64,000 nt of DNA from contig JACPWD010000022.1 in assembly GCA_016197285.1 (NCBI GenBank), positions 182,502 to 246,501 on the forward strand, read 5' to 3'. A program made the position numbers and the translations under genes. Each line of letters starts with the position of its first letter. Position 1 is the first letter of the stretch. Positions 21,470 to 38,362 of the stretch are shown one piece after another. The notes below the pieces were generated by a model that worked only from the letters and a program-made list of their open reading frames with translations, was not told the origin of the DNA and did not search any database. Origin of the DNA: Deltaproteobacteria bacterium. Its GTDB lineage: Bacteria; Desulfobacterota; Binatia; Bin18.

Positions 21470-21928
21470 TTATTGATCCTGTATCTGTGTCGCCGTCGTA
21501 GGGGTCTTCTGATTGAAGTTATCGTAACATTGCAAGACCAAGGCATAGGACGTACTACCGCCGAATGCGTTCCCCACCGTGGCGTACCCCTGCATCGCGC
21601 CGATCGCGGGATCGCGAAACAAACTGGTCCAGTCAACAGCACCAAGCCCACCACCCAACACGAACGCCGCTACGGATTTCCCTTTGGTGGGTCCAGGGGC
21701 GAGCCCGGTGAGGGTGAGGGTAACGTAGTCGGCATCGGCATCGTTGTCGCGAATCTCTCCGTAGATGGAGCGCGTCGGACCGGTACACTTGACCTTATAG
21801 ACATCGAGACAAGCCAGATGCTCACAACCAACGCTCCCGAAAAAATCCACCGCCCACACGGAGGCCACGTTTCCGCTCACGAGTGTCAACGCCATTCCCC
21901 AAGCCGCCAGCAATTTCTTCATGGACAT
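21470..21928 (-). CDS. Hypothetical small secreted Cys-containing protein
   Basis: 152 aa; N-terminal signal peptide MSMKKLLAAWGMALTLVSGNVASVWA; mature part Gly/Thr-rich with 5 Cys; no homology recognised. Confidence 0.5.
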   Translation of the reverse strand: MSMKKLLAAWGMALTLVSGNVASVWAVDFFGSVGCEHLACLDVYKVKCTGPTRSIYGEIRDNDADADYVTLTLTGLAPGPTKGKSVAAFVLGGGLGAVDWTSLFRDPAIGAMQGYATVGNAFGGSTSYALVLQCYDNFNQKTPTTATQIQDQ

Positions 21929-22254
21929 ATTTTTTCCTTTCTTGATTGATGACGAGGGCGAAGCAAGTACAAAGGATTCGGATGAGGTGGCGCACGGGCA
22001 GTAGGTACCATAGAGCAGGCTCCTTGCCCCCTACTTACTCATAGTGCACTCTCAAGTCTACACTCAGTCGATTTGTCAACTATAAAGTGACCATCGACCT
22101 CGGCATAACGCCCAAGCCCATCGCGAGCCAGCAAGACGCGCCCTTTCACATTCACCAGAACCGCAAGCGGGCGGCAGCCCCGTGCGGAACAATCGAATGG
22201 AGACGGGGCAGGCTTCTCCTTCTCTGCTGGGATTCAGCGTTGCCTCATCCCAGC

Positions 22255-23857
22255 CTACGGCCCTGCCACAAGGTCGCGAGCAAGTACAGTGCGTTTTCCC
22301 CCCCGCCTCCTAGCGGGTGACACTTTTAGACGACCACTCTGAAGGGACACAAGACGCTCCGCCACTCCCGCGAGCGCCTCTAGATCATCGCGGTTGTACT
22401 CAAGAAGGTCCATTTTGAGTACGACACGCCTGTTTTTGTCACGGGAGAGTCGGTACTCCTGGTACAAGGATAGGGCGACAAGGCCATCTTGTATGCGGCT
22501 TACTTTCGATATAGCGAAGTAACTTGCCACTTGGCCAAGCTTATAGCGATTTTCACTTCCGTGCGACCCGGGGGCGCGGGCGTCCCGCCCGCAGGAAAAG
22601 CGACCGAGACGGTCGCGCTCCCAGGAAAAAAGGTCGCATCCATTCGCAAACCGCTATAAGTTGAGGGATCGGGAACCGTACCGCGTTCCTAACATATTGA
22701 AACAGATCTAAATGTTTAGAGGTAACTGCATCCAACTCGTGACCGAGCTTTAGGCGTTGCGCTGCGTTTCGCAATTGAGGCATGTCCGCACCATTGCCAC
22801 TCCAAGTCACAACAGGTAGCGAGGGATTCGCCATCGAAATCTCGGCTAGGCGCTTGAGATTTCGTTTCTCCTGAATTGACGTCTCTGCCCACAGCGCGAA
22901 GTATTCGCGGCCATTCGGTCTCACCAAACAGATCCCAACGAGCCAAATAAGCCCGCTGGGGACGTACTCAAGGTCTAGGGCCAGAAATCCGCCATCCAAC
23001 CGGAGAGGATTCCCGAACAGCACCGGGGACGAGGCAGAATAGCTCGCGGCATGGTGTTTCCAGTGGTCAACTTGAGCGGGCGAGACAAAACATTTTCGAT
23101 CACGGAGCTTCTCGACAAGAGAGGAAGACTCGACCGAGAGAAGTTCATCATAATCGCTAATACCGATATCTTCGAAATGCCGCGCGTAGACTCGCCCCAT
23201 CCCCCAGAGCCGCGTAAGGTCTTTCTTCGCACGCGTGGCGCGGTCGATTTCCTCGCGCATAATCCCACTACAAACGGTGCATCCACAAATACGCGGCGTG
23301 ACGCCGAGATCGCGCGCCTTCCGGATGTCTTGTAACAAGTCGAGTACTTGGTCGAGGCGGTGCGATGGGATCTCAACCTCCACTTGTTCGTCAACTCCAT
23401 CACGACGCAAGAGAAGGTAACCGCGTGGAGGAACCTTTCTTTTCCTGAGGGGTTCGAGGAGCATCCAGTAAAATGCCAACTCCAATTCGTCAGAGCGCTG
23501 GACGGCTTTGTGAGATTTTATCTCTATCGGGATCAACGCGCCTTGAGCCGTGTCTATCGCGTCGGGCTTCCCGTAGATCTGAAGCTTCGCATTCTCGAAA
23601 AGTGGAACGCCGAAGAGGCGGATTGACTCTTCAGCGAATACCCTGGGAAGGTCATTGGGTTCAATTGAGAGAGGAATTGCTTTTGCCTCTACGACGCTAT
23701 GGAATTCGACGCCTTCTTGGATCAAACGGATCTGCATTTCAGTGACCGTCTCCTCAAATGCTATGAGGCCGCGATCAAGCAGATAGAATGCGTACGGGCA
23801 GCGCAGATATCTCGTTAGGTCGGTTTTGCTAACCCAGATTGGGGGGCGGGTCGGCAT
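22255..23857 (-). pseudogene. TM0106-family RecB-like nuclease (Cas4-like PD-(D/E)XK + HhH + RNase H-like), disrupted by frameshift/insert
   Basis: ORF 22553..23857 has a Cas4-like nuclease with CGCTVCSG cysteine cluster, HhH (ISDYDELL) and an RNase H-like segment. The conserved C-terminal IPxLW...YNxxDxxAL motif continues in another frame, ORF 22255..22530 (IQDGLVALSLYQEYRL...LLEYNRDDLEAL). The junction 22553..22640 contains two GC hairpins. Confidence 0.55.
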
Positions 23858-24166
23858 TTGCTGCTCCCTTCACAATCCTTAATTCTAGCCACAGATCGAC
23901 ACACCATTTTCTCCCGATATCACAGCGTTCACCACACAAAGCGTTCCGGCGGAAACCCAATATGCCTTACGCAGTAAGAAGTCAACAAGCAAAACTTCGT
24001 GATGATGCCTGCGTAGCGCTCCTCCTTGGTCATCGCGCCGAGCACCCCTCGCCACCCTCAGCATGAATGCCACCGTCCGCCGCCGACTGGACGACTCCCT
24101 GACCGAACGACCGAAAGACTCGCTCTCCCCCTTTCGTTTGCAGCCCTCACCTTCTAGTCTGTAGGC

Positions 24167-25960
24167 ATGTACGGATTTCACGGTCGCCTGCTCCAGGTCG
24201 ATCTCACCACCGGCTCTTACGCTTGGCGAGATGTGGCTGACGCTCGGCTACGCCAGGTGCTCGGCGGGATCGGTCTCGGGACGCAGTTGCTCTACGAGTA
24301 CGCGCCCACTCGGGTCGAGCCATTTGCCCCGGAGAATCCGCTGATTTTCACCAGCGCTCCGCTGGTCGGTTCGGGTCTGACCACGACCGCGAAATTCGCC
24401 GTCGTCACCGCCTCGCCGCTCACCGGGTTTATCGCCGATTCGCTCTCGTCAAGTTTCTTCGCTTTGGAACTCAAACGCATCGGTATCGATGCCCTCGTCA
24501 TCACCGGCACGGCGTCCACACCGGTCTTTTTGCGGGTGACGGACGACTCGGTTGAGATACGCGACGCTTCTCACCTCTGGGGCAAAAGCCCGCACGAGAC
24601 TGAAGCCGCTATTCGCCAGGAACTGCAAGAAAGAGAGGCGCGCGTCGCGGCAATTGGCGTCGCTGGGGAACGGCTGGTGCGTTACGCCACCATCAGCAAC
24701 GAAGGTCGCCACGCCGGACGTGGCGGCGTCGGTGCGGTGATGGGGGCCAAACGGCTGAAAGCCATCGCCTTGCGTGGACGCGCACGAGTGCGCGTCGCCA
24801 ATCCAGCCCGCGTCGAAACTATCGCCGATGCCCTCCGCCACAAAAGCCTCGGCTCGCTAACCGCCAAATACCGTGAAATCGGCACGGTCGCGAATCTGGC
24901 GGTGTTCAACCGCTTGGGAGTCCTCCCTACCCACAATTTTCAACAAGCGACGTTCGCACACGCCGACGCGCTGAGTGGCGAGAGTCTGCTGACGAATTCG
25001 TTCAGTCGCGTGCAAGGTTGCGCGTCGTGTACGATCCGCTGCGAACGCCTCTTCAAAGCACTCAACGGCGAAGAACAGCGCCTCGAATACGAGACCTTGT
25101 TCGCGTTAGGGCCGCTGTGTGGCATCGACAACCCCGATGCGGTCCTCCAAGCGGCACAGCGTTGTGACCACTATGGGCTCGATACTATCAGCACCGGCGG
25201 CACCATCGCCTGGGCAATGGACTGCGCAGAAAAGGGCTTGCTGCCGGCGGCGCAACGTCTGGGGCTGCGGTTTGGCAATGCCGAAGCGCTGTTAGCAACA
25301 ATCGATGCTATCGCTACCAGGAGCGGCATGGGCGCGCTTTTCGCCGAAGGATCAAGGCGCGCGGCGGCAATGGTTGGCAAAGAGGCCGAGTATCTGGCCG
25401 TGCATGTCAAAGGGATGGAATTACCCGGCTACGAACCGCGCGGACTCCAAACCATGGCCCTCGGTCTCGCCGTCAGCCCACGCGGTGCCTGCCACAACCG
25501 CTCGGGTGCGTATGAAGCCGACTTCTCTGGGCAGGTAGATCGACTGCAATCCGATCCGCAGCGTGGTGCGCTCGTGGCTGCGTCGGAAGATTTTTCCGCA
25601 GTGCTGGATTCGCTGATCGTCTGTAAGTTCCTCCGCAAATGTTTTACCGACTTCTATCCGGAAGCAGCGGACCTCCTCGCAGGCGTGACCGGCTGGGACT
25701 TCTCGCCTACCGAGCTGCAGCGAGTTGGAGAGCGCATTAACACGCTGAAAAAGCTGTTTAACGTACGCCAGGGATGGCAACCTGAAGATGACAATCTCCC
25801 GCTCCGGCTCTTGCAAGAACCGCTGGCTACCGGCGTGGGCCAAGGAACCCTTTTGACTTCTGTGGAATTGCACGAAATGATTCGGGGGTATTATCGAGTT
25901 CGCGGCTGGGATGAACAAGGGTTCGTTCCGGAAGAGAAATTGCAAGAATTAGGTTTGTAG
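24167..25960 (+). CDS. Aldehyde:ferredoxin oxidoreductase (tungsten-containing AOR family)
   Basis: 597 aa; AOR N-terminal domain and Fe-S/pterin-binding motifs (CxxC...C...TGG-rich segment); ATG at 24167. Confidence 0.85.
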   Translation: MYGFHGRLLQVDLTTGSYAWRDVADARLRQVLGGIGLGTQLLYEYAPTRVEPFAPENPLIFTSAPLVGSGLTTTAKFAVVTASPLTGFIADSLSSSFFALELKRIGIDALVITGTASTPVFLRVTDDSVEIRDASHLWGKSPHETEAAIRQELQEREARVAAIGVAGERLVRYATISNEGRHAGRGGVGAVMGAKRLKAIALRGRARVRVANPARVETIADALRHKSLGSLTAKYREIGTVANLAVFNRLGVLPTHNFQQATFAHADALSGESLLTNSFSRVQGCASCTIRCERLFKALNGEEQRLEYETLFALGPLCGIDNPDAVLQAAQRCDHYGLDTISTGGTIAWAMDCAEKGLLPAAQRLGLRFGNAEALLATIDAIATRSGMGALFAEGSRRAAAMVGKEAEYLAVHVKGMELPGYEPRGLQTMALGLAVSPRGACHNRSGAYEADFSGQVDRLQSDPQRGALVAASEDFSAVLDSLIVCKFLRKCFTDFYPEAADLLAGVTGWDFSPTELQRVGERINTLKKLFNVRQGWQPEDDNLPLRLLQEPLATGVGQGTLLTSVELHEMIRGYYRVRGWDEQGFVPEEKLQELGL

Positions 25961-25974
25961 AGGAAGACGCGCAT

Positions 25975-28842
<2,868 letters not shown>

Positions 28843-28872
28843 GCGCCTATCCGGATAACCACTATCGCCCGA

Positions 28873-28970
28873 TTGTCATTCTGAGCGCAGCGAAGAATCT
28901 TGCTTTCACCGCCGAAGAAAGATGTTTCGCGGAGTTTATCCTGAGCGTAGTCGAAGGGCTCAACATGACA
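28873..28970. repeat. MITE/REP-like repeat family 1 copy C, flanked by TATCCGGATA palindromic direct repeats
   Basis: TGTCATTCTGAGCGCAGCGAAGAATC ... GCGGAGTTTATCCTGAGCGTAGTCGAAGGG; CCTATCCGGATAAC at ~28848 and GTTATCCGGATAGG at ~28981. Confidence 0.7.
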
Positions 28971-29285
28971 CGTTGCTCACCGTTATCCGGATAGGCACTG
29001 AGTACAAGGCACCCTAAATGACAATTCTCAGTTGGATGTTTTTCATAGGGTCGATTCTGGTTTTATCGCTGGGCCTCTCCATCTACTACCAAGACAAGAA
29101 AGACGCCCGGCACCGCAAAAAATGATCGCTCTCCTGTCATTAGGCACCCGGAAAACAGCAAACCAAGCTCTCAGCTCTCAAGATGGAGAAAATCCATGTC
29201 CCAGCTCATCGAACCAGGGTCCCTGCCCATGAGGAAAAGAACACCGAATCGTTCTTCACTTTCAACTTTTCACTTCTTCCTACCT

Positions 29286-30721: not shown

Positions 30722-32557
30722 TTATTGTGTATTATCCTTCTTCTTCGGCCGCAGATGCTGTTGCAAGACTCTCTTGCGCATGCGGATCGACTGCGGCGTC
30801 ACCTCGACCAGCTCGTCGTCGGAGATCCACTCCAAGGCGTCCTCAAGACCCATCTCGCGGTGCGGCGTCAAGCGCACGGCTTCATCGTGCCCGGAGGCGC
30901 GCATGTTCGTGAGCTTCTTTTCGCGGCAGGCGTTTACATCGAGATCTCGGTCGCGCGAATACTCGCCGACCACCATGCCTTCGTAGACCGGAGTTCCAGA
31001 GGGCGTGAATAAAACCCCGCGCTCTTGCAGGTGAAACAGGGCATAGGGCACGGTAGGACCTTCGCGGTCCGAGACCAGCGCGCCGTTCGTGCGGCTTTGA
31101 ATCGGCCCCTGCCACGGCGCATAGCCATTGAACAACGAGTTCATAATCCCCGTCCCGCGCGTATCGGTAAGGAAATGCGAGCGAAAACCGATCAACCCGC
31201 GCGAGGGAATCGAGAATTCTAAGCGGACACGGCCAGACCCCAGGTGATCCATCTTCGTCATGATGCCTTTACGAACCGCCAGCAGTTGCGACACCACGCC
31301 GATGTACTCCTCGGGCACGTCGATCAGCAGCAGCTCCATGGGTTCGTGCGGTTTGCCCTCGACATCTTTGGTGATAACGACCGGCTTCGAGACTTGCATT
31401 TCATAGCCCTCACGTCGCATGGTCTCGATGAGGATCGCGAGCTGCAACTCGCCGCGGCCCATGACACGAAACGAGTCGGGCGACTCGGTTTCCTCGACGC
31501 GGAGGCTGACATTCTTCCGCAATTCCGCCCAGAGCCGCTCGCGTATCCTGCGGGACGTGACGAATTGCCCTTCTCGCCCGGACCAGGGACTGGTGTTGAC
31601 GCCGAAAATCATGGCGATGGTCGGCTCGTCCACACGAAGGGCGGGCAGCGGCATGGGGGTTTCCTTGTCGGAAATCGTCTCGCCGATTTGGATCTCTTCG
31701 ATCCCAGCGACGGCCACCACATCGCCGGCCTGCGCGGACTCGATCTCCATACGTTTGAGTCCTTGCCAACTGTAAAGCTGGGTAATTTTACACGGGGTTT
31801 GTGATCCATCGAGGCGACAGACGGTGTAAAAGCTCGTGGCCCGTAGCTCGCCGCTGACAATCCGCCCGATCGCCAGACGCCCCACATAATCGTTGTAATC
31901 GAGGTTATTCACCTGAAACTGAACAACGGCAGTCGGGTCGCTCAGCGGCCCCGGCAACGCCGAGATAATCAGATCGAAGAGCGGACGCAGATCTTCGGAT
32001 TCATCATCGAGTGTCCGTTTGGCAATCCCGGCGCGGGCGTTGGTATACACGACCGGAAACTCGATTTGCTCATCGCTGGCACCCAGGTCGATAAAGAGAG
32101 CGTACACTTCGTCCAGCACTTCGCCGATACGCGCATCTGGACGGTCGATCTTGTTGATGCACACAATCGGCGACAAACCGGCTTCGAGCGCTTTCTTGAG
32201 CACGAAGCGCGTCTGCGGCAGCGGCCCTTCGGACGCATCCACCAGCAGCATGACGCCATCCACCATGGCCAAGGAGCGTTCCACCTCGCCGCCGAAGTCC
32301 GCATGACCAGGGGTATCCACGAAATTGATCTTGACCCCATGGTACGAAATCGCCGCATTCTTCGCCAAGATGGTGATGCCACGCTCGCGCTCCAGCTCGA
32401 ACGAGTCCATGATGCGGTCAACGACCTGCTCTTTTACGCGGAACGTACCGCTTTGGCGCAGCAGCGCATCAATCAGTGTAGTTTTGCCGTGATCGACATG
32501 GGCGATGATAGCGACATTACGGATGTCGCTTCGCCGGGACGTATTCGCCTGTGACAT
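30722..32557 (-). CDS. typA: Translational GTPase TypA/BipA
   Basis: G domain [22 protein letters not shown]. Track ORF begins at a TTG at 32632. ATG 32557 ([20 protein letters not shown]) is preceded by GGAGG with a 4-nt spacer. Confidence 0.9.
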
Positions 32558-32760
32558 GATCCTCCCGAGAAAATAAAAGAGGGCCGGAAAAGGTTCGGCC
32601 CTCTGGATAGACAATGGGAGCATTGTGCCCAATCCCTAGCGCGAAGTCGAGCGAGAATGCCGCATTTTTTACGAAAAGGCAGAGCGAGCTGGAAATTTGT
32701 CGGTGCGTTCACGAGCCGGGGAGCGTGGCCAGCTTCGCTTGAACATGGTACAGAAGCGGC

Positions 32761-37831: not shown

Positions 37832-38362
37832 AGACTCAGGAAGAAAAGGCAAAAATGAGGACGAAAAGAGCAGATCCCATTTGTCGTCCCCCGAGCGGCG
37901 CATCGCGCCTGCATGATGGTAGCCGTGGGTTTCAACCCACGGCGGAGGGAATCCCACAAAGGCAGAGGCAATACGAGATTCCTCACCGTCACTTCGTTCT
38001 GGTTCGGAATGACAACCCCTACAGGCAAACTGACAGACAGTGGGTTTCAACCCACGGCGCATGGATACCACAAGACATCTGCCGCTACATCGTCCGGCCT
38101 TGAAAGACCGGCCTACCGTCGTGCGCCTCGCTGCGGCGCTGGCCAGCCCGCTGCGCGGAAGATCGTAGCCCACGACGTGAGTCGTGGGGAACATGAGGGA
38201 AGGGCAACGGGGAACAGGCAACAGCGAAAAGGATTGACAAAAAGAGCAGGCCCCGTTCGTCATTCCGCCAGCGGCGTGTCGCGCCGGAAACTGCAACGGC
38301 TGTCATCGGCTAGCGCCGGTAATGTGGCGCGCCCCCGCCCATGGTGGCGCACCACGTTTCAC
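37832..38362. repeat. Repeat-fragment-rich noncoding region (two CCGTGGGTTTCAACCCACGG hairpins plus a partial family-1 arm)
   Basis: GTGGGTTTCAACCCACGGCG occurs at ~37924 and ~38039. Partial family-1 arm GAGATTCCTCACCGTCACTTCGTTCTGGTTCGGAATGACAAC lies at 37975..38016. No convincing ORF. Confidence 0.6.

Follow-up and report, generated by a model that had tools for sequence, protein, structure and literature searches.

Insertion sequences of the bacterial IS630 family transpose in cut-and-paste fashion, inserting into a TA dinucleotide that is duplicated in the process, and their transposase binds the terminal inverted repeats via an N-terminal HTH domain (PMC2170065). ISY100 follows this plan, with a length of 947 bp, 24-bp inverted repeats, a 282-aa transposase and a duplicated TA (PMC2170065). 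The short RUP element of S. pneumoniae was attributed to IS630-Spn1 on the grounds that its ends match those of an IS630-family insertion sequence, and RUP insertions into the transposase genes of insertion sequences are also on record (PMC2229807). The Correia/NEMIS elements of Neisseria occur both within and between genes (PMC2229807). REP sequences are grouped into super-families that are defined by GTAG or CGTC terminal tags next to an 8-9-bp stem (PMC3733652), and Di Nocera et al. described long TATAGGA... palindromes of Anabaena variabilis that have REP dimers within them (PMC3733652, section 7).

The locus described here lies in a window of 64,000 nucleotides (64 kb), by which we mean the whole stretch of DNA that was analysed. 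On the minus strand of the window, at 23857..22255, a gene of the TM0106 family, encoding a predicted two-domain nuclease, Cas4-like and RNase H-like, is split into two reading frames. Its neighbourhood is that of an ordinary chromosome, with genes for aldehyde:ferredoxin oxidoreductase, formate dehydrogenase alpha, GlcD, TypA and MetG. We found that the split is an exact transposon insertion, a real gene knockout rather than a sequencing frameshift and an event of an ordinary kind. The inserted DNA is very probably a non-autonomous MITE of the IS630/Tc1-mariner type that entered the TA of a CTTAAG site in an otherwise intact nuclease gene.

An exact insertion in a TM0106-family nuclease gene

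The features of the interrupted gene and of the element within it are as follows.

22657..23857, minus strand: 5' part of the nuclease gene, from the ATG (23857-23855) to one base into codon 401; its product holds the Cas4-like PD-(D/E)XK domain, a helical linker and the first two-thirds of the RNase H-like (PolB-exonuclease-like) domain
22657..22658, minus strand: left copy of the target TA; removing 115 nt restores the frame
22544..22656, minus strand: MITE, 113 nt, TAGCGGTTTGCG...AAAATCGCTA
22632..22656, minus strand: left terminal inverted repeat TAGCGGTTTGCGAATGGATGCGACC, which with the flanking TA fits the consensus TATAGCGgTTTgCAnnTGngTGCGaCC
22568..22625, minus strand: GC-rich palindromic core, CCTGGGAGCGCG..CGCGCCCCCGG, REP-dimer-like
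22544..22568, minus strand: right terminal inverted repeat GGTCGCACGGAAGTGAAAATCGCTA
22553..22555, minus strand: premature TGA within the MITE
22542..22543, minus strand: right copy of the target TA
22255..22541, minus strand: 3' part of the gene, now orphaned, with codons 401-495 and the TAG stop (22257-22255); its product holds the RNase H-like domain's final three helices, with the invariant Y449-N-R-D-D453 motif

As encoded, the first frame (23857..22553, minus strand) specifies a protein of 434 aa, made up of 400 native residues and 34 encoded by the MITE, which NCBI annotates as a 'ribonuclease H-like domain-containing protein' from a 'Deltaproteobacteria bacterium' MAG. In profile searches this protein matched positions 3-411 of TIGR03491 at 73.9 bits, under the 97.45-bit cutoff, and it also matched Cas4, PDDEXK_1 and positions 13-99 of RNase_H_2. 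The second frame, which has no stop between about 22655 and the TAG, covered positions 400-459 of TIGR03491 and positions 102-164 of RNase_H_2. Excising 22544..22658 (115 nt) yielded one ORF of 1488 nt and 495 aa, whose product reads ...RFPIPQLKLGQVASYFAISKVSRIQDGL... across the junction. The restored protein matched TIGR03491 in a single stretch, from position 3 to 459 of 462, at 101.7 bits, which is above the cutoff. Its match to RNase_H_2 was likewise a single stretch and reached 58.1 bits, compared with 23.2 and 27.4 bits for the separate pieces. The initial annotation had placed the gene in the TM0106 family, with a Cas4-like PD-(D/E)XK domain, a Cys cluster and an RNase H-like domain in the 434-aa frame and the family C-terminus intact in the other frame, and these results bear it out on each of these points.

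The limits of the insertion were defined by comparison with orthologues, as the initial annotation had proposed. Thirteen full-length orthologues (45-73% identity, 470-543 aa) aligned to the restored protein without a gap at the junction, where the restored sequence RFPIPQLKLGQVASYF faces RFPIPQLGLGQVASYF in the orthologue P0003; the stretch across the junction reads RFPIPQLGLGQVASYFAISKVSRIYDGL in P0003 and RLPIPQLKLGHVARYF in P0012. On the gene strand the DNA reads ...CCT CAA CT-TA-[TAGCGG...113 nt...CGCTA]-TA-AG CTT GGC... Only the removal of 115 nt, with one TA kept, restored both the frame and the conserved ...PIPQLKLGQVASYF... sequence. Removal of 117 nt, by which both TAs are lost, left the wrong frame, indicating that one of the two is the gene's own TA and that its partner arose by target-site duplication. 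The element entered at codons 400/401, in the TA of a CTTAAG site, and the frame changes because 115 equals 3x38+1. The case is a clean filled-site example that demonstrates TA duplication. An empty-site allele, sought as the exact 30-mer GATCCCTCAACTTAAGCTTGGCCAAGTGGC, was not found in metagenome_contigs; it is possible that the population at this site is heterogeneous.

These limits revise those first proposed. About 90 bp at 22553..22640 had been taken as foreign DNA, and the C-terminal homology had been read from GTG 22530; the extra DNA in fact amounts to 115 nt, namely 22544..22656 and one duplicated TA, and homology resumes at 22541, right after the second TA. The suspicion that the junction resembles a small inserted element was well founded, since a complete 113-nt MITE with inverted repeats lies there, although its limits and its terminal inverted repeats had been missed. 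A simple frameshift, the cause named in the initial annotation, was ruled out: the frames cannot be joined by a change of 1-2 nt and require the loss of 115 nt.

An assembly error had been offered as the alternative. The window does come from a metagenome-assembled genome, and repeats of this MITE family often break assemblies; the organism could then have an intact gene, with the extra DNA or the frame change arising in assembly from, for example, a mis-join through a repeat. We consider a sequencing or assembly artefact of this sort very unlikely. Both flanks are parts of the same gene and rejoin seamlessly, to the base, at a single TA, and a mis-join would not make a complete element of canonical IS630-type MITE structure that has an inverted repeat at either end and a target duplication of 2 bp. 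An artefact by homopolymer indel is excluded, as 115 nt must be removed.

The element, its repeat family and an IS630-type partner

The terminal inverted repeats of the element are imperfect, with arms of about 25-29 nt (29 when the TA and flank are included) and 72% complementarity, and the arm pair 22540-22568 / 22632-22660 is the top-ranked inverted repeat of the 64-kb window. The core between them (58 nt) is laid out as CCTGGGAGCGCG, hairpin A, a spacer, hairpin B and CGCGCCCCCGG. Both hairpins, A at 22600-22616 and B at 22576-22592, are perfect and 17 nt long, and they correspond to the two tight GC hairpins already recognized at the junction in the initial annotation. Taken alone they are within chance, with as many matches at up to 3 mismatches in 4 of 100 shuffles for the first and 34 of 100 for the second. 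The stretch 22530-22680 folds into a single long hairpin, imperfectly paired and closed on the outside by CTTATAGCGGTTT.../...AAAATCGCTATAAG; the junction RNA fold has an energy of -68.2 kcal/mol (z = -3.7), and none of 200 shuffles folded as well. With the TTTT that follows it on the gene strand, hairpin A received a terminator-like score. When 21900-24200 was scanned against Rfam by E-value for known structured RNAs or ribozymes, only sub-threshold noise came back (P36 at 20.4 bits with a gathering threshold of 36, truncated RNase P at 19.3 bits with one of 60), and a scan of 18 related loci at the gathering thresholds gave no match. The MITE is without coding capacity, being 113 nt long (<300) and having a stop codon in the entering reading frame. 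Within the 64-kb window we detected neither a second copy of the element (blastn-short and hairpin searches) nor an IS630 transposase (tblastn).

Two other repeats were seen in the window. Directly downstream of the formate dehydrogenase alpha gene, at 28842-28999, 18-nt inverted repeats AGCGCCTATCCGGATAAC / GTTATCCGGATAGGCACT, 94% complementary, enclose 122 nt, and this may be another small MITE-like element. A 22-nt palindrome, GCCGTGGGTTTCAACCCACGGC, has two intergenic copies, at 37922-37943 and 38040-38061, which lie 118 nt apart and have a REP-like look.

We scanned a species-representative genome collection with the end pattern TATAGCGRTTTKCN7TGCGACC, which fits both arms of the window element, and found at least 120 genome loci. 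By our own estimate, about 4 would be expected by chance (18 fixed and 2 two-fold positions, 596 Gb, both strands). Among the matches listed, nearly all came from Acidobacteriota MAGs (Blastocatellia, Pyrinomonadaceae), often with many per genome, and 39 of 126 repeat arms ran off contig ends, a typical signature of repeats that break assemblies. When the arms in these listed matches were paired, 49 distinct complete elements emerged, 64-236 nt in length, in which the ends are common and the interiors diverse and mostly palindromic. Both window arms conform to the consensus end of the family given above, and a TA followed 56 of the 60 partner arms that had been located without requiring one. 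Nearest to the window copy, among the matches listed, are L025, L080, L085 and L115, with 84% identity over the first 43 nt; they share with it ..TTCCTGGGAGCGCG.. and, on the right-hand side, ..GCCCGCGCYCCC.. The interior of the window copy agrees only partly with other family members. A 1226-nt 'element' at L003 was rejected as an insertion sequence, being two MITE ends around a Crp/Fnr-like gene. Nothing on the repeat ends was found in the searchable literature, from which the MITE family is absent; it is previously undescribed and is defined here together with a compact autonomous IS630-type partner.

The family is abundant in soil Acidobacteriota and is present as well in the genome studied here, whose host is probably Binatia-like and not an Acidobacteriota, to judge by protein similarity: its TypA (window 30722-32632) is closest, among named matches, to those of Candidatus Binatia and 'Deltaproteobacteria bacterium' MAGs, at up to 87% identity. 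This distribution suggests a cross-phylum spread of the IS630-type family, a picture that the restriction to the matches listed may have biased.

The partner was reached through L098, where a decayed IS630-type gene is enclosed by the same ends at a distance of 1003 nt. L098 itself was rejected as the intact partner because it is a degenerate insertion sequence, and a search with its gene product led to intact relatives of 312-313 aa. These belong to 999-nt units (the TA at each end included) bounded by TATAGCGGTTTGCAGGTGCGTGCGGCC ... GGCCGCACGCACTTGAAAACCGCTATA, which were located as follows.

L241-L244: 999-nt insertion sequence, transposase P0121
L245: 999-nt insertion sequence, transposase P0126
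L246/L247: 999-nt insertion sequence, transposase P0122

The unit stands at three different left or right flanks and is always adjoined by TA. Against NF033545, 'IS630 family transposase' (cutoff 100), P0121 (313 aa) reached 184.6 bits, and its match to DDE_3 had E = 1.6e-31. Because the ends of the window element are common to these transposase-bearing units, we assigned it to the IS630 family as a MITE. We propose, from what is known of the family, that an IS630-family DDE transposase would be supplied in trans from an insertion sequence of about 1 kb with the same ends. It would bind the 25-27-nt terminal inverted repeats and excise the element, which would then be pasted into a TA, with duplication of that TA. 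As a separate observation, L244 has the right flank of L241/L242 and a different left flank around the same copy of the insertion sequence, and this mixture points to a chimera assembled at the repeat or to recombination between copies.

The GC-rich core brings in another candidate for the mobile unit, namely a REP/REPIN-like pair of GC-rich hairpins moved by a RAYT-type tyrosine transposase, instead of an IS630-type MITE. When metagenomes were searched with the core pattern CTGGGAGCGCGN{20,50}CCCGCGCYCCC, the core was found standing alone in at least 120 loci, most of them symmetric dimers, and TATAGCG ends were near it in only 2 of the 120 matches listed. The stand-alone cores at L127 (1758-1813) and L131 (1450-1505) are almost identical to the window core. 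The flanks of about 8 of 108 cores had inverted repeats above the 99th percentile of the shuffled control, suggesting that the module is mostly alone, and intragenic REP insertions are on record (PMC3733652). Nevertheless, we regard movement as a REP unit as highly improbable here. What the gene carries in excess of its orthologues has its exact limits at the IS630-type inverted repeats and the TA duplication rather than at the core, and the core units (CTGGGAGCGCG-hairpin) are without the terminal GTAG or CGTC tags of the REP super-families (criteria of PMC3733652). Neither the core sequence nor its peptide translations were found in the searchable literature, and Rfam has no entry for the module.

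With the element taken as an IS630-type MITE, the core becomes part of its cargo, and this cargo is not confined to one family. The core (CTGGGAGCGCG..CGCGCTCCCAG) was also found between at least four other, unrelated types of inverted-repeat ends (loci L121-L240), including the following.

Ends GTGTTCACA.. : L121/L122/L154
Ends TTAAGGAATGAG.. : L125/L167/L180
Ends AGCGTTCAC.. : L140/L175/L178
Ends GAGTTTCTACATT.. : L129/L174

One tentative interpretation, which we hold to be possible rather than probable, is that the core is an independently successful module that is carried within several unrelated MITE families or enters their centres again and again, with IS630-type MITEs as its vehicles across phyla (Acidobacteriota, Binatia). 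A REP-dimer-like cargo common to other MITE families offers a modest lead on how such palindromes spread.

Fate of the interrupted gene

The restored protein was modelled with AlphaFold (mean pLDDT 85.4, pTM 0.67). In Foldseek searches against the PDB, its N-terminal domain matched Cas4 (8d3l_J, E = 1e-6), MGME1, SSO0001 and RecE, and its C-terminal domain matched archaeal family-B DNA polymerases in their 3'-5' exonuclease domain (6wya, 4flu, 1qht). Cys20, Cys191, Cys193 and Cys196, the four Cys ligands of the Cas4-like domain, are invariant across the 14 aligned sequences. No solved structure for the nuclease family was detectable by sequence search, and no tested function for any TM0106/TIGR03491 family member was found in the searchable literature.

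The insertion falls after residue 400 and removes helices 402-408, 420-432 and 436-467, with the invariant Y449-N-R-D-D453. The 434-aa product retains the Cas4-like Fe-S nuclease domain; its RNase H-like/DEDD-type domain is incomplete, and the Y449-x3-D453 helix is out of frame. The exonuclease half of the truncated protein is most likely dead, because the last three PolB-exonuclease-like helices, including the invariant Y-x3-D motif, are missing. In the proposed sequence of events, the 115 added bases would shift the frame and bring in the TGA stop, so that only the 434-aa protein would be made, and the terminator-like hairpin inside the element may cut transcription of the 3' remnant further.

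The orphaned 3' part contains no stop and no frameshift and keeps every invariant column of the alignment. Its similarity to orthologues equals or exceeds that of the 5' part (0.74 vs 0.74 for P0002; 0.80 vs 0.71 for P0003). Because the orphaned part shows no decay, the insertion looks recent, as far as sequence comparison can tell; continuing selection on the 3' part is possible and would be compatible with the absent decay as well. Recent inactivation, one of the two outcomes considered in the initial annotation, is a plausible one, the C-terminal part being as orthologue-like as the N-terminal part.

The undecayed 3' part would also fit an interruption that is tolerated or bypassed, by ribosome hopping, by RNA-level removal of the hairpin or by the making of two separate polypeptides. 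The very stable hairpin of the element brings the gene halves together, and identical CTT codons, as read from the sequence, stand just before and after the insert as candidate take-off and landing sites. We find such a bypass hardly credible, however, since promoter-like sites were absent from 22100-24200, no Shine-Dalgarno sequence was seen before GTG 22530, a recent insertion is the simpler account of the absent decay, and close relatives also have truncated copies of the gene, which suggests that it is dispensable. The gap in the classic T4 gene 60 bypass is 50 nt, and we know of no translational bypass of the length required here.

Several homologues of the nuclease have irregularities of their own. 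The closest relative, P0030 (L248 3001-3927, 83% identity), breaks off at residue 305, where unrelated DNA takes over; P0084 (L249 1501-2661, 63% identity) is cut off at residue 312; and P0031, P0058 and P0102 have early ends and junk tails. It seems that the gene has been repeatedly lost or disrupted in this lineage, or that its metagenome assemblies are error-prone. In P0109, P0110, P0115 and P0118, the linker and RNase H-like domain are kept (from about query residue 176-208) and another N-terminal region replaces the Cas4-like domain, with a PF08939 domain in P0110, P0115 and P0118. The swapped N-terminal regions point to domain shuffling in the nuclease family.

For annotation, the 434-aa NCBI protein is best regarded as the stump of a transposon-disrupted gene, and its entry should carry a pseudogene flag together with a mobile-element feature. 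The entry should not be treated as a family variant or as a sequencing error.

Comparison with described families and elements

The restored protein fits the TM0106 family model (TIGR03491, with the YprB-like RNase_H_2) end to end and combines the Cas4-like and PolB-exonuclease-like domains. The window gene differs from the family in being interrupted, and its product as encoded falls under the family cutoff.

The core of the element is like the REP dimers, or REPINs, in consisting of two inverted GC-rich hairpin units with a short spacer and in being very abundant. The REP dimers of Anabaena variabilis come closer still in architecture, with the core central in a longer palindrome that has TATAG ends. 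The outer palindrome differs here in being the end pair of an IS630-family insertion sequence. The arrangement of a REP dimer within a palindrome is less novel for the published precedent in Anabaena variabilis.

Correia/NEMIS elements and the window element share a length of 100-155 nt, inverted repeats of about 24-26 nt, TA duplication and a transcript that forms a long hairpin (PMC2229807). The interiors differ, and for the window element an autonomous IS630-type partner has been identified here. The Correia terminus TATAGTGGATT resembles TATAGCGGTTT of the window element; the likeness may be coincidental.

The autonomous partner has the architecture of ISY100, with 995 nt plus TA, one 313-aa transposase with HTH and DDE_3 domains, imperfect 27-nt inverted repeats and TA flanks. 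In contrast, the window element is without a transposase and would be movable only with one acting in trans.

RUP is the closest described analogue. Both elements are about 107-113 nt long and non-coding, with ends that match IS630 and insertion at TA, and the window MITE is assigned to IS630 on the same kind of evidence as that by which RUP was attributed to IS630-Spn1. Their sequences are unrelated and the host phylum is different; the inverted repeats are about 27 nt long here vs 9 nt in RUP, and the interior here is a REP-dimer-like palindrome. Finally, the window copy is intragenic and disruptive, whereas the 108 counted RUP copies are intergenic (PMC2229807).
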